This document shows, piece after piece, positions 21,668 to 49,140 of a DNA stretch of 58,639 nucleotides. A program made the translations under genes and the position numbers. The stretch covers positions 1 through 58,639 of the IMG/VR virus record IMGVR_UViG_3300025997_000012, one strand, 5' to 3'. This stretch comes from a virus. Its lineage: Duplodnaviria; Caudoviricetes. Positions within the stretch are counted from its first letter, which is position 1. Each line of letters opens with the position of its first letter. Below the pieces are notes generated by a model, which was not told the DNA's origin, searched no databases, and worked only from the letters and a program-made list of their open reading frames with translations.

Positions 21668-21741
21668 TGTACCCAGCGCAGGACTCGAACCCGCTGTCAT
21701 GACTTCGTAAACCCTTGGTTTATCCATTAACCGAACTGGTT
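21668..21741 (-). tRNA. Degenerate tRNA-Arg(ACG)-like
   Basis: Good T arm GCGGG-TTCGAGT-CCTGC and D arm; poorly paired anticodon stem; no CCA. Confidence 0.45.
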
Positions 21742-22288
21742 AATTATATTTTTATTGTAACATTAAAATTATGTTTTTATGATCAAAACTGTGTTGATTA
21801 TCCAATAATTTTCATCTCTTCTACTAATTACATCTATAATGTCATCTGTTTTTACATTGATTCTAAATGGTCTAATTTTTTTCATCTAAATCACGATAAT
21901 ACAAAAATTCACATAAATGATATTTACTCAACGAAATTATTGATTTTTGTTAATCAATAATATATAAATGTCTATTTTTAATTTTTTCTAAAATATGTTT
22001 TGCCTTTATTGTAACTCCTACCAAATTAAAGTAAATTTTTATTAAAAATATGATTAAATTTGTTCAAAATATCTGTTTCGGCCATAACAAATATCATAAA
22101 ATTGTTTACTATGATATATTATACTAAAAATTAAAACAAATGTAAATACTAATTTAACAGTATTTTTCTTCTTATTCGTTTACTGACATACAATCAAACA
22201 CATGTAATAAGTAACACTTTGGTTATATGATGTCTAATGTATAGTACACACAACTATTATTACATGACGTGAACGTACTTTTGAGAAT

Positions 22289-22363
22289 TGGTGCCTCGTG
22301 TTGGAGTCGAACCAACGACCTGTCGATTATGAGTCGATTGCTCTACCGTTAAGCTAACAAGGC
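22289..22363 (-). tRNA. tRNA-CAT, Ile2 (lysidine)-like
   Basis: GCCTTGT/ACGAGGC acceptor, TCGA-CTCATAA-TCGA, CCA end; resembles bacterial Ile2. Confidence 0.85.
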
Positions 22364-22364
22364 G

Positions 22365-22438
22365 TGGACCTGGCATCCGGAATCGAACTGGAATCTAAGG
22401 ATTTGCAATCCATTATACTACCGTTATACTATACCAGT
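22365..22438 (-). tRNA. tRNA-Cys(GCA)
   Basis: Loop TT-GCA-AA, U discriminator, CCA. Confidence 0.8.
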
Positions 22439-22450
22439 TTAAAATATTTT

Positions 22451-22506
22451 CCTTATTTATTAAATCTTTTATAACAATAAAACATAATATGTAAAGAATT
22501 ATTTTT
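22451..22506 (-). promoter_or_regulatory. Early promoter cassette driving tRNAs
   Basis: Reverse complement TTTACATATTATGTTTTATTGTTATAAA. Confidence 0.7.
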
Positions 22507-22525
22507 ATTATTTACATTTAAAAAT

Positions 22526-22608
22526 TGGTACTAGTATATGAACTCGAACTATCAATACCAAAGCGAGGGATTCTAAGTCCCTCGTGTATACCATTCCACC
22601 ACACTAGT
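22526..22608 (-). tRNA. tRNA-Leu(TAG), weak T stem
   Basis: ACTAGTG/TACTAGT acceptor, AGGGA-CTTAGAA-TCCCT, long variable region, CCA. Confidence 0.7.
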
Positions 22609-22620
22609 ATTATAATTAAG

Positions 22621-23040
22621 AGGGAGTTTGTTAATAAGGCATATCTCCCAACTTGAACTAAATCAGCCTCAACAGACTACGCTACTAAACGAGTCTGTGC
22701 AAAAGTATTATCATTTGCGTTTATCTTTAAAATGTATCTTATTTTACGTGCTTCAATCTTTACACGACTCTCAGGTGCACCGTACATTACCCTGTCGAAA
22801 CCAGTACATCCCCATCAAGAGCACACTTATGTGTAAAAATTATACAAACAGTTCACATAATAAATTAATAACTACTCCTGCTCCACATGTATTGGCTAGA
22901 TACAACATGTTTCCAAACTTATGAGGTCTGTTGTAGTCACTATCTGTTGTATATAATTACCCTATAATGTTATAAATGTGCTTTTGGTGGAGATGGGGAG
23001 AGTCGAACACCCGTCCAGACCAACTTTATACACCATCAAC
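22621..23040 (-). ncRNA. ssrA: Circularly permuted (two-piece) tmRNA; tag ANDNTFAQTRLVA*
   Basis: Acceptor piece ...GGACGGGTGTTCGACTCTCCCCATCTCCACCA (CCA at 22987-22985) precedes coding piece GGGGATGTACTGGTTTCGACAGGG (from 22813); G3-U70 pair; tag frame 22718-22677. Confidence 0.9.
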
Positions 23041-23755
23041 GAATTTTATAATTCTTTTAATATTGTTTAACATCTTTTGGCAAATAAGTTAAAATATTCA
23101 TCACTGAAATAACATAGAGATATAGTAATGTTGTCATAAAATATTCTGCATTAAATAACCCATATATTGCATAATATGGTCCAAGTAAAAATACCATATG
23201 TAACTATTACCGATGGCATTAATACTAACCAACATTTTAGGATTAAAAAACAATAGCTATTGTTTTACATGTAAGCCGTTAGTAATATAAAAAATATTAA
23301 TGTTATTAACATGTATTCAAATGCTGATTCAGTGATAATAACATAAATCAACTTTAATGTTTTTGGTTTCATTAATAAGTCTTTAAGTTCATTGATTCGT
23401 CTTTCACAATTATTAATTTATTCAGTGCTTCCTTTGTTAATATAATCATAAACTTTTTCTTCAGTGATTGATTTATATTCAACATTAGTGATTGTTTCTA
23501 CATGATAAACTTTATCATAGTGGTCTTATTTAGCTCCTAGATTTTCACTTTTAATATCTACAATAAAGTACTTATTATCAACTTTAACAAATGCACTTCA
23601 TCCATCACTATAATAGTCTTGACAGCAAGGTAAATATTAATCACTAACCTCTTTAAAATATGGTACAATATCTGATATAGTTTTTAATTCTACAATTTTA
23701 CTCATTTTATATTACTATTTAATTTACATTAATTTCAACAATTTATTCATTAAAT

Positions 23756-23831
23756 GAGGTAACCGAATGGATTTGAACCAAGTCTTGAGTGATTTTAGGT
23801 CACTTACCTCTACCAATTAGGTAAGATGGCA
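23756..23831 (-). pseudogene. Degenerate tRNA-like sequence (loop CCTAAAA)
   Basis: D arm, AGTGA/TCACT anticodon stem and GGTTCAAATCC present; acceptor stem unpaired. Confidence 0.5.
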
Positions 23832-23870
23832 TTATTTTTAAATATTCTTTTTAAAAACACTTAAAACTAA

Positions 23871-23944
23871 TGGTGGGTTGTAAGGGAATCGAACCCTTAT
23901 AGACCGGTTAAAAGCCGGATATTCTACCGTTGAATTAACAACCC
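23871..23944 (-). tRNA. tRNA-Lys(TTT)
   Basis: GGGTTGT/ACAACCC, CT-TTT-AA loop, CCA. Confidence 0.9.
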
Positions 23945-23951
23945 GAAAGTT

Positions 23952-24028
23952 TGGTGGATCGCTTGGGAGTCGAACCCAAAACCTACGGGTTAAAAGCCCG
24001 GTGCTCTATCCAATTGAGCTAGCATTCC
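23952..24028 (-). tRNA. tRNA-Lys(TTT)
   Basis: CGGG-CTTTTAA-CCCG, GGTTCGACTCC, CCA. Confidence 0.85.
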
Positions 24029-24085
24029 ATATATTAAATTGTGGGGATTTTTTACCAGCAAACATCTTTCGTTTCATTTATATTT

Positions 24086-24150
24086 CCTTTTTTGTTTATT
24101 TGTTAAATTTATTATAACTAATAAAACATAATATGTAAACAATTATTTTC
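24086..24150 (-). promoter_or_regulatory. Early promoter cassette inside tRNA cluster
   Basis: Reverse complement GAAAATAATTGTTTACATATTATGTTTTATTAGTTATAATAAATTTAACAAATAAACAAAAAAGG. Confidence 0.85.
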
Positions 24151-24197
24151 ACAATTTTTCATTTTTAAATATTCTTTTTCATAAAAACACTTAAAAA

Positions 24198-24272
24198 TGG
24201 TAGTTCTGTCAAGAATCGAACTTGAATTTCACGATTATCAGTCGCGGGTAATAACCATTATACTACAGAACT
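24198..24272 (-). tRNA. tRNA-Ile(GAT)
   Basis: AGTTCTG/CAGAACT, CGCGA-CTGATAA-TCGTG, CCA. Confidence 0.9.
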
Positions 24273-24274
24273 AT

Positions 24275-24349
24275 TGGTGTCAACGGTTGGTAACGATCCA
24301 ACCTATCTGGTTCTTCAGACCCGTGCTAATTCATCTCAGCTACATTGAC
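24275..24349 (-). tRNA. tRNA-Phe(GAA), atypical T loop
   Basis: GTCAATG/CGTTGAC, CT-GAA-GA loop, T loop ATCGTTA, CCA. Confidence 0.8.
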
Positions 24350-24351
24350 AT

Positions 24352-24429
24352 TGGAGTGGGTTTAGGGGATTCGAACCTACGAATAACGGATTCAAAGTCC
24401 GCTGCGTTAAACCACTTCGCCACATCCCA
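24352..24429 (-). tRNA. tRNA-Gln(TTG), aberrant 3' arm
   Basis: Identical to the next copy through the T loop; 3' strand CCCCTAAACCCACTCCA pairs poorly. Confidence 0.6.
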
Positions 24430-24435
24430 TTATTT

Positions 24436-24512
24436 TGGCTGGGACGGAAGGATTCGAACCTACGAATAACGGATTCAAAGTCCGCTGCGTTAAACCACTT
24501 CGCCACATCCCA
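24436..24512 (-). tRNA. tRNA-Gln(TTG)
   Basis: TGGGATG/CGTCCCA, GCGGA-CTTTGAA-TCCGT, GCCA end. Confidence 0.9.
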
Positions 24513-24518
24513 TTAATT

Positions 24519-24593
24519 TGGTAGCGGTGGAGGGACTCGAACCCTCGTCCATTAGGTTATGAGCCTAATAGTCTGCCGCTGACGTACACCGCG
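24519..24593 (-). tRNA. tRNA-Met(CAT), initiator-like
   Basis: CGCGGTG/CACCGCT with unpaired C1-U72, TTAGG-CTCATAA-CCTAA, CCA. Confidence 0.85.
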
Positions 24594-24600
24594 TTAATTT

Positions 24601-24676
24601 TGGTGCCGAAAGTAGGACTTGAACCTACAACCTACTGATTACAAATCAGTTGCACTACCAGTTGTGCTATTTCGGC
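24601..24676 (-). tRNA. tRNA-Thr(TGT)
   Basis: GCCGAAA/TTTCGGC, ACTGA-TTTGTAA-TCAGT, CCA. Confidence 0.95.
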
Positions 24677-24746
24677 TTAAACAATTATTAAATTTACTAT
24701 ATTTAAAAATACTATTTAATGTTATTTTAATACTCTTAAATATAGT

Positions 24747-24814
24747 TGGCCAGAATGATAGGATTTGAACCTGCACCTTCCAAGGCGAGAGAACTACCAT
24801 TATCTTACATTCCG
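24747..24814 (-). pseudogene. tRNA-Pro(TGG) pseudogene with deletion in anticodon arm
   Basis: CGGAATG/CATTCTG acceptor and T arm intact; 3' strand of anticodon stem missing. Confidence 0.6.
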
Positions 24815-24825
24815 ATTATCAGTGT

Positions 24826-24899
24826 TGGTCTCTCTGGAAAGAATTGGACTTTCATTTTACGGTCCCAAACCGTATGCATTACCATTATACTACAGAGAG
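24826..24899 (-). tRNA. tRNA-Pro(TGG)
   Basis: CTCTCTG/CAGAGAG, TACGG-TTTGGGA-CCGTA, CCA; T loop TCCAATT is atypical. Confidence 0.8.
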
Positions 24900-27968: not shown

Positions 27969-28781
27969 TTATTGTTCAGTTATTGTTTTCTTAAAGTCTA
28001 TTGTTATATTTTTTGCTTCGATTTTTTCTATTAATGAAGGACTTATTAAATGTTCAGTGTAATTTTTGATAAACACTTTACTTATGTTGAAATATTCTTT
28101 GTATATGTCTATTCGTGATAACACAGCATCAGTTGAAATATAATCATTAATTACTAAAAACGGCGTATGAATATCACATGTTTTTGATAATGAACAACGT
28201 TTACATATTTGTTCATTAGCGTCTTTTTTACATTTTATAGAATGTAATTCATAAATTTCAATTAATGTATATTGCATTGATTCAACAATAACATCAGCGA
28301 TTCGTTTAAATACCACAATGAAATCTTTGTCGATAAGTTTAGTTAATTCAAGCAGAATAAATGCTGACACTTCTTTATGTAGTTTACCCCATATTTCAGT
28401 AAACATAGAATCAAAGAAATCTTTATGATCATTAAATATAATCGTTTCAATTTTGTCACTGGTTTTATTAGCCAATTCAATTATCATTTCAACACTTTCG
28501 ATATCAAACTTTGGTTTTTTATGATCACATAACATATCGATAAAGAAGTTTTCTGTTTCTGTTAAAAATCTTGACCATAAATCATATTCCAATAATAAAA
28601 TTTCTCTACGATCTTGATTAAAATAAAACCTGCCATTACCAATTTGATTTAATTGAAATGCTTGTACATTTTTAAATTTTTCCAATGCTTTACTAGATTC
28701 AATTCTAAAACCGATACTATTAGAATGAAATTGATAATTATATAAAAAGTTTTTATAACGTTCTGTTGCTTTTGGCATCAC
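27969..28781 (-). CDS. Hypothetical protein, late operon
   Basis: 270-aa ORF coupled (GTGA overlap) to upstream TM protein. Confidence 0.7.
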   Translation of the reverse strand: MMPKATERYKNFLYNYQFHSNSIGFRIESSKALEKFKNVQAFQLNQIGNGRFYFNQDRREILLLEYDLWSRFLTETENFFIDMLCDHKKPKFDIESVEMIIELANKTSDKIETIIFNDHKDFFDSMFTEIWGKLHKEVSAFILLELTKLIDKDFIVVFKRIADVIVESMQYTLIEIYELHSIKCKKDANEQICKRCSLSKTCDIHTPFLVINDYISTDAVLSRIDIYKEYFNISKVFIKNYTEHLISPSLIEKIEAKNITIDFKKTITEQ

Positions 28782-29268: not shown

Positions 29269-30453
29269 TCACTTATTTTTAAGTTTGAATGCTTGCATTT
29301 TACCACTATTCATGGTCTCTACAATACTACCTGTTGGCTCAATTAACCATATAACTTTCTTATTTAAATTACTAAATTCTTGAACTTCACCACTATATAA
29401 CCAACCATCTGTTAAGACTACAATAGCATCGTAAGGTATTTTACATTCATTAGCTTTAGCGATAGCTGGGAAAATATCAGTACCACCACGGCCTTCTCGT
29501 GAAAATACTTTTGTATTTTTTGTTAATTCTTGAGGTGCATGTGCTACAGTATCGATTTGAATTAGATTAACCGTAGTATCAGTACAATTACATATATGTC
29601 TAACTTCTCCGATAGTATCATTTAATGCTTTATCACTCATTGAACCACTAACATCAGCAACGACTAATAAATCGAATGTTCTATCTTTCGTTTTACCTTT
29701 AACATCTTTACGACCAGGCATACGACGATCTCTTCTCATAATAGTTCGTCTTGTATTAGTTTTCTTATTACTAATAATATTACGTAAGACACTTCGCCAA
29801 TTAACTTCAGATGCTCTTGCATGTAATTTAATAAGATCATTAATATCACAAGGTAATGAACCAGCATGTTTAAGAGTGTATGTCATTGCATCTTCAATGA
29901 TTTTTTTAGTTATATCTTTCTGTAAGTTTTCATCACCTTGTGATTCTTCCCATGTATTATGTGTACTCATAACACCACCATCGTCACCTATATCATAATC
30001 TTTGATTTTGTCATAATAATATTCAGCTGTTTGATCGTAATCAACATCGATACCGTTATTAATAAATGTTAAAGGAGTAATACCATTTTTAGGTAAATGA
30101 TTTTTATCAATTAACTGATTAATAGCACAATCTGTAGCATATCTCCATATGTTAATGACGCGATTCATCTTTCTACCAATATGACCATGAATAATATGCA
30201 ACATTTCATGTTTAATAATAGCTAATCGACCTAATGAGTTATATTCATCAAATTTATCAGGATTAACGTACATAATGTAATGGTCTACATTAAATGATAC
30301 ACCTGTTGGTGCAGGTAATGTATAATCGATGGTGATAGAGCATTTGCCAAGTACACACGCATAAAATAAGTATGTTCTTTTAAATTCTGGATTAGACATC
30401 ATCATAGAAATTGTTGTATCTAATAACCCACGTGAAAATTTTGATTTTTGCAT
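29269..30453 (-). CDS. Metallopeptidase-like + VWA domain protein (DUF2201-like)
   Basis: HEMLH, ATDCAINQ, DVSGSMS (MIDAS), GRGGTD, VLTDG. Confidence 0.88.
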   Translation of the reverse strand: MQKSKFSRGLLDTTISMMMSNPEFKRTYLFYACVLGKCSITIDYTLPAPTGVSFNVDHYIMYVNPDKFDEYNSLGRLAIIKHEMLHIIHGHIGRKMNRVINIWRYATDCAINQLIDKNHLPKNGITPLTFINNGIDVDYDQTAEYYYDKIKDYDIGDDGGVMSTHNTWEESQGDENLQKDITKKIIEDAMTYTLKHAGSLPCDINDLIKLHARASEVNWRSVLRNIISNKKTNTRRTIMRRDRRMPGRKDVKGKTKDRTFDLLVVADVSGSMSDKALNDTIGEVRHICNCTDTTVNLIQIDTVAHAPQELTKNTKVFSREGRGGTDIFPAIAKANECKIPYDAIVVLTDGWLYSGEVQEFSNLNKKVIWLIEPTGSIVETMNSGKMQAFKLKNK

Positions 30454-46279: not shown

Positions 46280-46810
46280 TTATTTAATGTTTTCTGGGTC
46301 TGGGTTAGTACATTTGAATTCAACTGTGAATTCAGCAATTTGTGTTTCAGTATTATTACTAAATTGTAATTGTGAAACAGAATCAATCATTGCATTATTA
46401 TATGTAGCAATCTTTTTTATTGTTTCATCTGCATAATCAGCATCTTTATATAAATGAACTGTTGATTTTATGTCATCGAAATACATAGTTCTTTGAAATA
46501 AGTATGTTGCAACAAATTTCCTATACAATTTCATTTGGTCTTGGTCTCTGAATGTAATTGAGAATCTATATAATTCATCCCTACCATTATGAATGAACCA
46601 TCTATCACCTGTGTAATGTTCGATATTTTGGTTAGTAAATTGTGGTGTATTAAAACTTACGATATTCAGATTAATTGCACGAGAATTCAAGTCACTTGTC
46701 CAACCAACTAATTTTTTAATTGTTGGTGAAAGATCAAGTTCGATAGTAAATGAGTTAATATATGACCATTTAGTATTGTATGCAGTAAGCATACCATCAG
46801 CAAAATTCAT
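46280..46810 (-). CDS. Tail tube protein paralog (gp19/gp54-like)
   Basis: SITFRD, IDSVS.L.F......I.EFTVEF; likely start MNFADG at 46810 after AAGGA. Confidence 0.7.
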   Translation of the reverse strand: MNFADGMLTAYNTKWSYINSFTIELDLSPTIKKLVGWTSDLNSRAINLNIVSFNTPQFTNQNIEHYTGDRWFIHNGRDELYRFSITFRDQDQMKLYRKFVATYLFQRTMYFDDIKSTVHLYKDADYADETIKKIATYNNAMIDSVSQLQFSNNTETQIAEFTVEFKCTNPDPENIK

Positions 46811-46839
46811 ATATGTTATTCCTTTTATAATATTATTAT

Positions 46840-46851
46840 TATTTATAAATA
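46840..46851. promoter_or_regulatory. Palindromic bidirectional T4-type late promoter TATTTATAAATA
   Basis: TATAAATA on + (46844-46851) and on - (46840-46847) between divergent tail genes. Confidence 0.75.
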
Positions 46852-46878
46852 ATAAAATAACAAATATTTGGAGATACA

Positions 46879-47712
46879 ATGTCGTCAATAGTTCAGAATA
46901 TGATGCAAAAAGCCATTGGTGATGGTGCTAGAGCTAGTAAATTCGATGTAATGTTGAGGTTTACTGGTAATGCTGGATACGATTTAGATACGATTGGTAT
47001 TATGGTTAAGACTACAAAATTGCCATCTAAAACCCATCAAAAATTAGATTTTAAGTTTAAAGGTAGATCTATTCCATTAAAAGGGCAGACTAATTATGAC
47101 CAAACTTGGGAGTGTCAATTTTATTTAACACAAGATCATGCTATAAAGAATGCATTTGAATTATGGGTAGAAGCATTAGACCAAAAACATAATTATCATA
47201 ATCCTAATGATTATAAAGGTTTACCAACATTACAGGGTAATCATTATACTAATGGGTATGTTGTTCCTGAGATGCATATATATCAGAAAGATTTCGATAA
47301 TACTGCTAAGACAGCTAAATATATTATGTATAATGTGTATCCTACGGAGATATCTACAGTGCAGTATGATGCTGAAGGTAGAGGCCAAATATCTTTATTT
47401 ACTGTGACGTTTTCATATAGTCATTATAAGTCAGAAGTTATGAAGAGTAAAGATGGTAATTTCATCGATAATTTAGTTAACCGAATTAATAATGAAACCA
47501 AAGAATTTATTGACGAGAAAATGCAGTCATTGAGCAATGCTATAAATGGATTTATTGGTGAAGATGCATTAACTAGTTTAGAAAATTATGGTAAGTCTAC
47601 TGAAGATTTTTTGTTTAGTGATGGTGCTAAACCAGCTACACCTAAGACAGTATCACAATTAACAAGAGGTGGTTTAGGTGCTGCACATATGCCAAGTAAA
47701 ATAGGCGAATAA
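46879..47712 (+). CDS. Tail tube protein paralog (gp19/gp54-like)
   Basis: GARASKF, LPS, GR.I...G...Y..W, NVYP..IS, FTVTFSY. Confidence 0.8.
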   Translation: MSSIVQNMMQKAIGDGARASKFDVMLRFTGNAGYDLDTIGIMVKTTKLPSKTHQKLDFKFKGRSIPLKGQTNYDQTWECQFYLTQDHAIKNAFELWVEALDQKHNYHNPNDYKGLPTLQGNHYTNGYVVPEMHIYQKDFDNTAKTAKYIMYNVYPTEISTVQYDAEGRGQISLFTVTFSYSHYKSEVMKSKDGNFIDNLVNRINNETKEFIDEKMQSLSNAINGFIGEDALTSLENYGKSTEDFLFSDGAKPATPKTVSQLTRGGLGAAHMPSKIGE

Positions 47713-47728
47713 TTTAAAAGGATTTTAA

Positions 47729-48472
47729 ATGTTTACAATTAGTGATCTTAAAAAGCATCTTGGACCTGGTTTAGGTTTAAGAAAAAATAAATACTTATTA
47801 GAGATACCTATACCTGGAATTGAAGGTGAAAAATTAAATGTATTATGTAGAAGTGCAGGATTACCAGAACGTCAGATAACAACAACACATGTATGGCATA
47901 AAGGAAGACGATATAATACACGTGGTGAGACTGATTATATGGGTTCATATGAAGTGTCTATATTAGATGATTCAGCAATGAACATCAGAAAAACATTCGA
48001 TAAGTGGTTAAAGAAAGTTGATGATTCAGGGGAAGAAGGTGGTTTAGCATCATATGAGGGTAATTTAAAAGATTTATTAGATGTAGCTAAATCAGGCCTT
48101 ACAGTGTTGAATCAGGTTAAGAATGTTACTAAAGACCCTAGCGATGCTATTGGTGGATATTTTTTAGGTATGATAGACCCAGAGGGGGCAGATGCAACAG
48201 CTAAATATCAAACAGACATAAACATTTGGCAATTATCAGCTAGCGGTGAAAAGGTATACGGGTATAAGTTACAGAATGCGTTTCCACAAACAGTTGGAAT
48301 TGTTACATTAGATGATGGTGAAGAGAATACATTATCGGAGTTCAGTGTTACATTTGCATTTAGTGAATTTATTCCGTTAGAAAACCAGTCATTTGGTGAA
48401 GAATTATTAAGAACTACAATTGGTGATTCAGGTAATGAAGTTGTAAATGGTGTCGAAGCTTTATTTGATTGA
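47729..48472 (+). CDS. Tail tube protein paralog (gp19-like)
   Basis: R.NKY, LC.SA.LP, NAFP..VG...LD, EFSVTFAF. Confidence 0.8.
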   Translation: MFTISDLKKHLGPGLGLRKNKYLLEIPIPGIEGEKLNVLCRSAGLPERQITTTHVWHKGRRYNTRGETDYMGSYEVSILDDSAMNIRKTFDKWLKKVDDSGEEGGLASYEGNLKDLLDVAKSGLTVLNQVKNVTKDPSDAIGGYFLGMIDPEGADATAKYQTDINIWQLSASGEKVYGYKLQNAFPQTVGIVTLDDGEENTLSEFSVTFAFSEFIPLENQSFGEELLRTTIGDSGNEVVNGVEALFD

Positions 48473-48558
48473 TAAGTAAATAATTAAATATATAAATAAT
48501 AATAAAACAATATATATATATATATATTTAACGGTAAAAATAACAGGAGAAATTAACA

Positions 48559-49140
48559 ATGGCAAATAAATTGTCTCAATTAAAGAATGCTTTAGGTGCA
48601 GGTGCTAGAGCTAATAAATATAGAATTGGATTTAGTATCCCTGCTACTGTTCCGGTGTCTTCTAATTTGCGGGATGCTGAAGTACTTTGTAAAGGTTCAT
48701 CTTTCCCTGGTGCGACGATTGGTCAAATTGAAGCATATAATCAAGGTAGAAAGTTGGTATTGCCTGGTGATACTACATATACTAATATTTGGACATTAAC
48801 ATTTTATCAAACTGAAGATCATGCTTTGCGTAAAGATATGATTTCATGGATGACATCTGCTGATAACTTCCAAAATAATACACATTCAGGTAATCCTACT
48901 GATGTAATGAGTGAGTTAAATGTTGAGCAATTGGATAGTGCTGGTAATGTAACTGCTACTTACACGATGCATAATGTATTTGTGCAGGAAGTTTCAGAAT
49001 TAACAGTTGGTGATGATCAAATTGATACATTACAAGAATTCGATATTGCATTTAGTTATACCGATTGGGTTGTTGGTAATGGTGAAATGAATAATCCAGC
49101 ATCAGGCAACCCTGCCACTAAAAACGCTATTGCTGAATAA
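48559..49140 (+). CDS. gp19: Tail tube protein gp19
   Basis: GARANKY, FPG..IG, GRKL.LPGD..Y..WT.TF, QLD, EFDI.FSY; own late promoter at 48491-48498. Confidence 0.88.
   Translation: MANKLSQLKNALGAGARANKYRIGFSIPATVPVSSNLRDAEVLCKGSSFPGATIGQIEAYNQGRKLVLPGDTTYTNIWTLTFYQTEDHALRKDMISWMTSADNFQNNTHSGNPTDVMSELNVEQLDSAGNVTATYTMHNVFVQEVSELTVGDDQIDTLQEFDIAFSYTDWVVGNGEMNNPASGNPATKNAIAE

Follow-up and report, generated by a model that had tools for sequence, protein, structure and literature searches.

A circularly permuted gene for a two-piece tmRNA (the RNA that rescues stalled ribosomes) lies on the minus strand of the window, by which we mean the whole 58,639-nucleotide stretch of viral DNA analysed here. 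Our preferred interpretation, to which we assign a probability of about 0.6, is that this is a genuine permuted ssrA, descended from the betaproteobacterial-type (beta-type) two-piece family of large aquatic phages and retained by a T4-like groundwater phage as part of its tRNA array. ARAGORN reports a permuted tmRNA (tmRNA*) at 22586-23077 with the tag ANDNTFAQTRLVA followed by a stop, and the Rfam model RF04321 (tmRNA_permuted) aligns along its full length (model positions 1-213 of 213) to 22677-23044 at 74.1 bits, the gathering score being 47 (E = 2.1e-12 over the whole window), a match far beyond chance. The gene order is that of a permuted gene: the 3' half of the tRNA-like domain, which ends in CCA, precedes the 5' half. 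The standard one-piece model RF00023 finds the coding piece alone (29.2 bits) and the acceptor piece alone (19.9 bits) as separate matches below its cut-off of 47. The analysis establishes the identity of the gene, its homology, and the conservation and covariation of its helices; the gene is a divergent representative of a known kind and is probably still functional. Rather than a fresh invention, it is a rapidly evolving copy of a gene type that is already widespread among big aquatic phages.

A preliminary description of this DNA had proposed a phage-encoded, circularly permuted two-piece tmRNA and had named ARAGORN and the Rfam models as the means of checking it, and both searches agree with that proposal. 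Its reading of the minus strand was also accurate in placing an acceptor piece that ends CAUCUCC-A-CCA at 22985 and a GGGGAUG that starts at 22813, in recognizing the alanine determinant G3-U70 among the seven acceptor pairs, and in two pairings between the pieces that prove real, GGUGUAU with GUGCACC (P2b, 7/7 pairs) and UUGGUCUG with CAGGGUAA (P2a, 7/8 pairs). The lower bound it gave, 22621, stands as the end of the last readable helix (CUCCC), whereas the upper bound of 23040 should be 23044. The tRNA-like domain has a 7-bp acceptor stem, GGGGAUG/CAUCUCC, with all seven pairs formed, followed by ACCA (the discriminator A and the 3' CCA), and its T loop and UGGUUUCGAC of the D-loop analogue fall in invariant alignment columns.

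Table 1. Parts of the permuted tmRNA gene and nearby features in the window.
Feature	Position	Strand	Basis or remark
Acceptor piece (3' half of tRNA-like domain)	22985..23044	-	Sequence reading, RF04321, family alignment
P2c strand AUUC	23044-23041	-	
P2b strand GGUGUAU	23034-23028	-	
P2a strand UUGGUCUG	23023-23016	-	
T stem GGGUG / CUCCC	23012-23008 / 23000-22996	-	U-U mismatch, fourth pair
T loop UUCGACU	23007-23001	-	
Acceptor 3' strand CAUCUCC	22995-22989	-	
ACCA	22988-22985	-	
Intervening sequence, 171 nt	22814..22984	-	Predicted to be removed
Leader UGAU, 4 nt	22817-22814	-	Directly before G1
Coding piece	22622..22813	-	Putative 3' end, somewhere before tRNA-Leu at 22608
Acceptor 5' strand GGGGAUG	22813-22807	-	
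D-loop analogue UACUGGUUUCGAC	22806-22794	-	
3' strands of P2a / P2b / P2c	22794-22787 / 22780-22774 / 22770-22767	-	
Hairpin CGUG/CACG, 4 bp	22766-22763 with 22750-22747	-	Aligned by RF04321
Tag reading frame, 13 codons, ANDNTFAQTRLVA	22677..22718	-	ARAGORN, RF04321, relatives
Resume codon GCA	22718-22716	-	
Stop UAG	22679-22677	-	
Proposed 3' domain	22622..22698	-	By-eye reading
Helix ACAGACU / AGUCUGU, enclosing stop codon	22698-22692 / 22678-22672	-	By eye
Pseudoknot S1 GAGGC / GCCUU	22670-22666 / 22640-22636	-	By eye
Pseudoknot S2 GGGAG / CUCCC	22649-22645 / 22626-22622	-	By eye
tRNA-Leu(UAG)	22526..22608	-	Directly downstream, same strand; ARAGORN, Rfam
Candidate promoter TTTACA-17-TATAAT	24111..24139	-	Sigma-70-like, 11/12, consensus match only

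Structure statistics were obtained from an alignment of 32 phage two-piece tmRNA genes, the window gene included, over 29 base pairs. Paired cells make up 96.1% of this alignment compared with 83.3% after shuffling, a value that 0 of 500 shuffles reached, and sliding the partners along the alignment left at most 55.5% of cells paired; both sides have changed in 15 of the 29 pairs, with strong covariation in the acceptor stem, the T stem, P2a and the stem that closes the intervening sequence, and G3-U70 (alignment column pair U-G) is present in 32/32 genes. In the register of the family, the window gene itself forms 7/7 acceptor pairs, 4/5 in the T stem, 9/10 in the intervening-sequence stem and 6/7 in P2a, where the exception is one G-G; the U-U in its T stem is the sole non-standard cell of that helix among the 32 genes. 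P2b (7/7) and P2c (4/4), read from the sequences, appear when the gene is threaded without gaps on its relative L070, from which they differ by compensatory changes (U-A to G-C and C-G to U-A). Between the two ends of the intervening sequence (22984-22973 and 22829-22818), 11 of 12 positions pair, in the register seen across the family; 8/10 pairs of this stem covary in the family, and the stem adjoins the acceptor stem.

The folding energies of the gene pieces are ordinary (z = -1.2, 0.0, +0.9 and -0.5), and such uninformative single-strand folding of separate pieces is expected because the RNAs pair in trans. We also considered a cargo inside the 171-nt intervening sequence and dropped the idea, as this segment has no minus-strand ORF of at least 25 aa and an ordinary folding energy (z = -0.5). 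Between P2 and the resume codon, the region of pseudoknot 1, RF04321 aligns a 4-bp hairpin, CGUG/CACG, with no second stem established; the base pairs of that model lie in the tRNA-like domain only (PMC11915505). A 'reduced' pseudoknot 1 was rejected because G1 and the resume codon lie 95 nt apart here, compared with 83-87 nt in most relatives and 107-110 nt in the L070 group.

The beta-type model is the best fit for the tRNA-like core of the gene: RF01850 (beta) gives 48.3 bits, compared with 27.8 for RF01851 (cyanobacterial) and 18.2 for RF01849 (alphaproteobacterial), although none of the three reaches its gathering score (84, 70 and 50 bits, respectively) and the RF01850 match is local, confined to model positions 79-164 of 331, the tRNA-like core. 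The nearest relatives of the gene are beta-type genes in other viral contigs, and 10/10 of those tested pass RF01850 with 86-175 bits; one pattern scan of viral contigs yielded 119 loci of all types, 61 of which ARAGORN calls permuted, and blastn with the gene as query returned zero matches among 50,697 phage records. The gene shares its break point, intervening-sequence stem, ...UGAU leader and P2 layout, position for position, with 31 beta-type phage genes. In the closest complete relative, a sister phage (G001) with a 100% complete genome and a major capsid protein 73% identical to that of the phage studied here, a full beta-type tmRNA gene (RF01850, 149 bits) occupies the syntenic position. 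Homology to the beta family, the shared processing stem, leader and P2, and this beta-type gene in the sister phage together indicate that the permutation is much older than the phage that now carries it, and a transfer from bacteria to phages probably took place at some earlier time, being neither recent nor special to this phage.

The phage itself is T4-like, with a genome of about 200 kb and 27% GC, some 70% of which lies outside the window, its tmRNA gene having about 36% GC; the run labels place it in groundwater or an aquifer, and among cultured phages it is closest to Vibrio phage Va1-like and Campylobacter phages. The tmRNA gene sits in a tRNA array and is probably co-transcribed with tRNA-Leu(UAG), whose own 5' maturation would contribute to setting the 3' side of that precursor RNA. 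No promoter match was found directly upstream of the gene in a consensus search. The array holds three near-identical promoter-like sites. One of them is the nearest strong sigma-70-like match on the gene's strand and upstream of it (Table 1), a candidate for driving transcription of a long tRNA-tmRNA precursor; the others are at 25083-25055 and 22146-22118. Contigs from RNA libraries in 4/4 metatranscriptome runs cover the gene, including its intervening sequence, at 99-100% identity, but these contigs carry no information on ends or strand, are possibly DNA-derived and cover flanking protein genes too. Contigs from some runs leave parts of tRNA genes uncovered, and such gaps prove nothing. 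A neighbouring 752-aa protein has no relatives among the viral contigs. SmpB was found neither in the window nor in the complete sister genome (0/2), so the RNA must rely on host factors.

A mechanism consistent with these features would begin with transcription of the gene and the neighbouring tRNAs as one long precursor, in which the paired ends of the intervening sequence would form a stem extending the acceptor stem. Host RNase P would then cut before G1 (22813) and host 3' processing would trim to the encoded CCA (22985), the intervening sequence being discarded, to leave an acceptor piece of about 60 nt and a coding piece of about 190 nt held together by the acceptor stem and the three P2 segments. 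Charged with alanine by the host alanyl-tRNA synthetase through G3-U70, the RNA would be delivered to stalled ribosomes by host SmpB and EF-Tu, and translation would resume at GCA (22718), adding ANDNTFAQTRLVA. The likely benefit to the phage would be extra ribosome rescue, and perhaps the recycling of amino acids, in infected cells, where broken mRNA abounds.

How the gene came to its present locus is a separate matter, on which we give real weight, at well under even odds, to allelic replacement, whereby the locus is ancestral to both this phage and G001 but the tmRNA now in it was swapped in by recombination from a phage carrying the L070/L031 subtype. The gene is syntenic with that of G001, while in the tree it groups with L070 (support 88/89) and G001 falls in a separate clade (100/100); it shares a AAUUCGUUGA... 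P2c/P2b layout with L070, L031 and L213 that is absent from G001; and the L070-type contigs are otherwise unrelated to the phage, with 0 or 1 weak protein match each across six contigs. We caution, however, that the placement is unreliable, given a branch of 1.08, a tree of 283 columns and a bootstrap that has not settled, and that identity over alignable columns is 66% to L070 and 59% to G001, a small gap. Replacement bears on history only and fits either functional reading of the gene. The L070-type contigs were also considered as nearer relatives of the phage as a whole and set aside, with 0 or 1 weak tblastx match each.

The window gene is the most deviant of the 32. Its branch is the longest, with 1.08 substitutions per site where the median is 0.2, and it breaks five positions that are invariant in the family, more than any other member, in an alignment with a mean column identity of 45%. 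Conservation is nonetheless graded: it keeps 67 of the 72 positions invariant in the 31 others (93%), 37 of 52 positions conserved at 80-99% (71%) and 53 of 117 variable positions (45%). The tag frame, GCA...UAG, has 13 codons in a context (AUAAAC-GCAAAUGA) like that of the family, and it ends in Leu-Val-Ala (LVA) and not in the usual Ala-Ala (LAA), with which all 38 other permuted tags read in the beta-like group end. Its length is that of a class known from relatives (the ...RLAA tags of L112 and L106), which it matches without gaps; the last five codons, CGU UUA GUA GCG UAG here and CGC CUA GCA GCG UAA in L112, differ by two synonymous changes and one Ala-to-Val. An origin from an ancestral ANDNAYALAA tag by read-through of two stops was dropped, as the gap-free match to the ...RLAA class needs one Ala-to-Val change. 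Across the family, the 3' domain (a stop-codon helix, then an H-type pseudoknot) has 81.4% of cells paired compared with 67.4% after shuffling, and its S2 covaries at 7/7 pairs. In the window gene, helices are readable by eye at places matching the family, and the domain carries a 17-nt insertion; its architecture is not significant in a shuffle test (1,070 of 5,000 shuffles match under loose criteria), and a covariance model (R1) made from the post-stop domains of 29 relatives did not find the window locus at E up to 10.

This divergence could instead mean that the copy is decaying or re-purposed, its tRNA-like domain still made, and perhaps charged or simply bound by SmpB, while its mRNA-like half no longer tags, so that it would act as a decoy or inhibitor of host trans-translation or else be a gene on its way to being lost. 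The long branch, the five broken invariant positions, the T-stem U-U and P2a G-G, the non-canonical tag end, the restriction of the RF01850 match to the tRNA-like core and the blindness of R1 to the 3' domain all point in that direction. So does the absence of a permuted tmRNA from 22 of 23 related contigs (mostly fragments) and from 3/3 cultured relatives, which implies that the gene is dispensable in the wider group. We nevertheless consider this unlikely because the tag frame is open for exactly 13 codons, a class seen in relatives, the resume context is conserved, the Arg and Leu codons have changed synonymously only, the stop codon would lie in a 7-bp helix, read by eye, placed as in the 13-residue tag class, conservation falls in graded steps and the processing stem is intact. 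In reporter studies in E. coli, LVA acts as an efficient degron for ClpXP. The precedent for an inhibitory role is the molecule of mycobacteriophage DS6A, which consists of a tRNA-like domain alone (PMC4131195).

A broader proposition, which we regard as doubtful, is that the 'betaproteobacterial' two-piece tmRNA is mainly a phage-propagated family from which a few bacteria received the permuted form; it may persist in the tRNA arrays of large myophages from aquatic and groundwater habitats, pass from one to another and evolve much faster there than in cells. It draws on the abundance and diversity of permuted beta-like genes in viral contigs (61/119 loci of all types, 10/10 relatives, 45% mean column identity), on the scarcity of the permuted form in a bacterial order with the same 5' motif and ANDERFALAA-type tags, where one of 28 examined loci is permuted and the rest are one-piece, and on a second order in which the exact 5' pattern occurs in 0/401 genomes. 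RF01850 likewise gave no match above its cut-off over 151 genomes of that second order, a weak negative with 10 candidates scored per genome. The subtype pattern AATTCGTTGA...TCTGGACG had 108 hits in bacterial genomes, with no tmRNA called by ARAGORN in the flanks of the 80 examined. A bacterial beta-type example does exist (L349, 169 bits, tag ANDENFALAA). The proposition also draws on the bacterial beta seed of Rfam, in which filtering at 88% identity was needed to leave about 100 sequences (PMC11915505). If it were true, the window gene would represent the far, AT-rich end of a phage radiation.

The preliminary description had instead suggested independent permutation or distant transfer, a view that finds little support now that the gene proves homologous to a beta-type permuted lineage widespread in viral contigs. 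Permutation from a one-piece tmRNA within the phage lineage, or recent capture from an alphaproteobacterium or cyanobacterium, is very improbable and largely refuted already, for although the tag begins ANDN, a start common in alphaproteobacterial tags, no lineage-specific model reaches its cut-off and the cultured relatives infect Vibrio and Campylobacter, whose tmRNAs are one-piece, the break point, intervening-sequence stem, leader and P2 layout are those of the 31 beta-type phage genes, the alpha and cyanobacterial scores lie below the beta score, ANDN tags also occur in beta-type phage genes (L070, L026 and L057) and the corresponding locus of the sister phage holds a gene of beta type.

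On our preferred interpretation of a genuine beta-type ssrA, the gene adds one more phage with its own ribosome-rescue RNA and brings into that list a T4-like groundwater lineage with relatives among Vibrio and Campylobacter phages. As an extreme case it is valuable for separating the parts of a two-piece tmRNA that outlast heavy sequence drift from those that do not. The former are the acceptor stem and its G3-U70, the T loop and D-loop analogue, the P2 segments and processing stem, and the resume context together with the tag reading frame; the latter are the 3' domain and the Ala-Ala tag end. The gene thus amounts to a natural experiment on the minimal requirements of such an RNA. The wider pattern, in which a lineage regarded as bacterial is better represented in phages than in the bacteria sampled, also merits a proper phylogenetic study.

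Among known systems, the beta-type two-piece tmRNA, reportedly first described by Sharkady and Williams in 2004, is the nearest: the window gene shares with it the permuted order, a similar tRNA-like core sequence, an intervening sequence whose ends form a stem followed by a UGAU-like leader, the segmented P2 helix, an AND... tag and a stop codon that would lie within a helix. It differs in its partial, sub-threshold match to RF01850, in a 13-residue tag ending LVA, in its low GC content, in being phage-borne and in a 3' domain whose 17-nt insertion accompanies its being missed by a model made from relatives. The Caulobacter two-piece tmRNA, said to have been tested experimentally by Keiler, Shapiro and Williams in 2000, offers by analogy a working model that may hold here too, with one precursor, a segment removed by tRNA-processing enzymes and two base-paired RNAs active in tagging; that gene, however, is bacterial and of the alpha lineage, for which the window gene scores poorly.

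Two-piece tmRNAs in phages, which the preliminary description had missed, are already published: Buchholz et al. 2022 (PMC9004378) describe them in aquatic myophages, including the OM43 phage Melnitz, pelagimyophages and cyanophages, and give 53 ARAGORN-called cases among 18,146 phage genomes. Like that group, the phage studied here is an aquatic T4-like myophage with a complete permuted ssrA, and the roles proposed there, to sustain the hijacked translation machinery or to recover amino acids (PMC9004378), would apply equally. Melnitz carries an alphaproteobacterial-type gene with a glutamine riboswitch in its 3' part (PMC9004378), whereas the window gene is of beta type, in a different phage group (Vibrio Va1-like/Campylobacter) and from groundwater or an aquifer; a similar riboswitch was considered here and dropped, as Rfam reports no riboswitch family at E up to 1 in 22300-23400. 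Mycobacteriophages, according to Hudson, Lau and Williams 2014 (PMC4131195), likewise carry ssrA without a phage smpB, but their tmRNAs are one-piece in the Bxz1 group and reduced to the tRNA-like domain in DS6A, for which an inhibitory, non-tagging role was proposed (PMC4131195); the gene described here, unlike either, is permuted and keeps its tag frame open.

The minus-strand stretch from 23044 to 22622 is a genuine two-piece tmRNA gene of a groundwater T4-like phage, divergent and derived from the beta type, and on reading the sequence its parts follow the order of a circularly permuted tmRNA gene. The preliminary description had proposed such a gene, to be checked with ARAGORN and Rfam, and both bear it out: ARAGORN calls a permuted tmRNA with the tag ANDNTFAQTRLVA, and the generic permuted model RF04321 (tmRNA_permuted) matches over 213/213 model positions at 74.1 bits (gathering score 47; E = 2.1e-12 for the whole window). 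On the sequence, the description is right about the coordinates, the G3-U70 pair and both pairings that it names between the pieces. Of the lineage models, beta (RF01850) scored best at 48.3 bits, followed by cyano (RF01851, 27.8 bits) and alpha (RF01849, 18.2 bits), all three below their cut-offs (84, 70 and 50, respectively) and with matches confined to the tRNA-like core; the one-piece model RF00023 gave 29.2 bits (cut-off 47).

Features of the tmRNA gene and its surroundings in the window
Feature	Position	Strand	Description
Acceptor piece	ends 22985	minus	60 nt; three P2 strands, T arm, acceptor 3' strand CAUCUCC, ACCA
T arm of acceptor piece		minus	GGGUG-UUCGACU-CUCCC
Intervening sequence	22984-22814	minus	171 nt, between acceptor and coding pieces
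Coding piece	starts 22813	minus	GGGGAUG, then UACUGGUUUCGAC, three complementary P2 strands, 4-bp hairpin, tag frame
Tag frame	GCA 22718 to UAG 22679-22677	minus	13 codons
tRNA array	21669-24899	minus	12 ARAGORN tRNAs and one Rfam-only
Rfam-only tRNA	24278-24349	minus	38.3 bits; no ARAGORN call
Sigma-70-like sites	25083-25055; 24139-24111; 22146-22118	minus	TTTACA-17-TATAAT, 11/12
Hydrophobic-peptide ORF	23057-23197	minus	MVFLLGPYYAIYGLF..., 46 codons
ABC-transporter-like ATPase gene	27969-28781
394-aa gene	29269-30453		PHROG annotated HNH endonuclease
Four successive tail-tube (phrog_45) genes	46280-49140	one minus, three plus
RNA-library contigs	22170-23363; 22583-23840; 22591-23737; 22647-23072

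Helices were assessed in 32 aligned genes (alignment A1) of the 39 distinct permuted genes extracted, over 29 pairs drawn from the acceptor and T stems, P2a and the stem that joins the two ends of the intervening sequence. Standard pairs filled 96.1% of cells versus 83.3% in shuffles (0/500 reaching the observed value) and 44.8-55.5% in slid controls, the latter comparison being biased by a structure line taken from one member (L085); covariation, with 15 of 29 pairs changing on both sides, is independent of that choice. The intervening-sequence stem occurs in all 37 genes with an intervening sequence of at least 30 nt (5-12 bp; at least 7 bp in 36), and a ...UGAU leader lies between it and G1. 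The window gene forms 7/7 acceptor, 4/5 T-stem, 9/10 intervening-sequence-stem and 6/7 P2a pairs. The minimum-energy co-fold of L070, the closest viral gene among the matches listed, is the canonical layout; the window gene aligns to it gap-free and, when threaded on it, forms 7/7 P2b and 4/4 P2c pairs, with two-sided changes from U-A to G-C in P2b and from C-G to U-A in P2a.

The last 27 nt of the tag frame match gap-free (alignment A2) a class of 13-residue tags, exemplified by L112 (ANDAFYGEDRLAA) and L106 (ANDAYFGDERLAA). Over the last five codons (CGC CUA GCA GCG UAA in L112 versus CGU UUA GUA GCG UAG in the window), two changes are synonymous, one replaces Ala by Val and the stop codon differs, giving an LVA end versus the canonical LAA; LVA is still an efficient degron on Escherichia coli reporter proteins. 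This class and the window gene also have a helix around the last codons and stop (ACAGACU/AGUCUGU, 7 bp, in the window) that ends 1 base short of the next element. Beyond the stop, the family has a helix and an H-type pseudoknot (81.4% of cells paired versus 67.4% in shuffles, 0/500), with both sides changing at 7/7 pairs of pseudoknot stem S2. A putative reading of the window 3' domain has S1 GAGGC/GCCUU, S2 GGGAG/CUCCC, a loop similar to the family AUUAC motif and a 17-nt insertion. This reading is insecure because, under loose criteria, the architecture arises in 1,070 of 5,000 shuffles, the folding z-score is -1.2, and R1, a covariance model of this domain built from 29 relatives (alignment A3) with the window gene left out, did not match the locus even with E allowed to reach 10; all 17 of its hits (E 0.52-9.9) lie elsewhere.

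The window gene departs furthest from its relatives, breaking five invariant positions (0-4 in other members), some perhaps alignment artefacts, carrying the longest branch (1.08 versus a median of 0.2) and having the sole non-standard T-stem pair of the 32 genes, all of which would suit a decoy or decaying copy. We nevertheless consider a decoy or decaying copy the less likely reading, as 67 of the 72 positions invariant among the other 31 genes are kept, along with 37/52 matches at 80-99% conserved positions and 53/117 at variable ones, which indicates constraint. Judged from sequence, this constraint in an AT-rich genome is read as continuing but loosened, or shifted, and we put the probability that the gene is a working tmRNA at roughly 0.6.

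The stretch was found in DNA runs with groundwater or aquifer labels (18, each a possible source of the contig) and in four aquifer metatranscriptome runs, all perhaps from one campaign. Contigs from all four RNA libraries cover the tmRNA gene at 99-100% identity, bridging the intervening sequence and extending over flanking protein genes. Assembled contigs reveal neither ends nor strand and DNA carry-over is possible in such libraries; such cover would fit a transcribed precursor but says nothing on processing. The contigs also cover the hydrophobic-peptide ORF, which lies within the otherwise RNA-gene array and stops 13 nt ahead of the tmRNA gene.

The viral record (58,639 bases; GC 24-33% in 2-kb windows) has an estimated CheckV completeness of 29%, implying a full genome of about 200 kb. 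PHROG profiles matched 32 of 37 window proteins, including a gp23-type major head protein, prohead protease, scaffold, tail tube, baseplate wedge and hub, ribonucleotide reductase, thymidylate synthase, dCMP deaminase and a late sigma factor, and thus indicate a T4-like myovirus; the fourfold tube-like protein genes are unusual for such a phage. Comparison of major head proteins places six Vibrio phages (191-196 kb, 71% identity) nearest among cultured phages, followed by Campylobacter phages (48-49%). The tmRNA gene sits within the tRNA array, a tRNA-Leu beginning 14 nt past its last readable helix. Three near-identical sigma-70-like sites are spaced as if the array were transcribed as three units; across the region there are 39 promoter-like sites versus 28.7 +/- 5.0 in shuffles. 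None of the three lies directly upstream of the tmRNA gene, the middle one being the nearest upstream.

Of 23 longer contigs whose head proteins relate them to the window phage, the closest relative alone, the sister phage G001 (73% identity; 205,555 bases, 100% complete), carried a permuted tmRNA; the other 22 are only 10-68% complete, so a missing match there says little. Vibrio phages Va1 and pv27 and Campylobacter phage CP21 gave no permuted tmRNA match (0/3), and an SmpB gene was found neither in the window nor in G001 (0/2). The G001 gene (RF01850, 149 bits; tag ANDESYRIAA) likewise lies inside a tRNA array, followed in the same order and orientation (tblastx) by genes matching the window at 25.7 kb and 28.0-30.4 kb. 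The ATPase and 394-aa genes adjoin the array in both phages (L329 16200-18600; tblastx segments of 53-66% identity). The G001 intervening sequence (119 nt; L196 1620-1740) holds a T-arm-like stretch, GUGGGUUCGAAUCCCAC, which may be a tRNA fragment or small structured insert.

In the tree, however, the window gene groups with L070 (support 88/89), apart from the G001 clade (100/100), and its P2c/P2b layout is common to L070, L031 and L213, whose contigs are otherwise unrelated to the window phage; either recombination has replaced the allele at the shared locus, or a long branch has misled the tree. Scanning viral contigs with a pattern for the tmRNA 5' half yielded at least 119 loci, at least 61 with an ARAGORN permuted tmRNA, bearing cyano-like, beta-like and other tags. 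L070 scores lowest against RF01850 (86 bits) of the ten loci most similar to the window gene among the matches listed, so the window gene extends a falling series. Contrary to the suggestion in the preliminary description, the gene is not an independent permutation, since the beta model scores best, these ten loci all pass RF01850 (86-175 bits) and the sister phage has a syntenic beta-type gene.

With a subtype-specific pattern, 7 of 17 viral matches proved to be real tmRNAs, against none of 108 bacterial matches, of which 80 were taken with flanking DNA, and the phage-like 5' pattern was found in 0 of 401 genomes of one bacterial order. A looser 5' pattern occurred in 124 of 301 genomes of another order, a count that takes in G463 and G642, which are flagged unpublished and used in that count alone. 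Of 28 loci inspected there, 27 hold one-piece tmRNAs whose tags are of the ANDERFALAA type, and the remaining one, L349, is permuted and of beta type (169 bits); the permuted beta type thus seems to derive from the one-piece gene of this order, and is rare among sampled bacteria. About 170 nt downstream of its one-piece tmRNA gene, bacterial genome G547 has a match to a CRISPR repeat (RF01317; L338 2038-2061).

Our literature search found no account specific to the window's phage group. Buchholz et al. (2022, PMC9004378) report ssrA in 402 of 18,146 phage genomes, 53 two-piece by ARAGORN and 50 of these from marine or aquatic samples; a 2025 tmRNA database paper describing RF04321 has 79 bacteriophage sequences (PMC11915505), and tmRNA and SmpB are mentioned in huge-phage surveys (PMC7162821). 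Phage two-piece tmRNAs are, then, already published, and the window gene is a further, divergent example.
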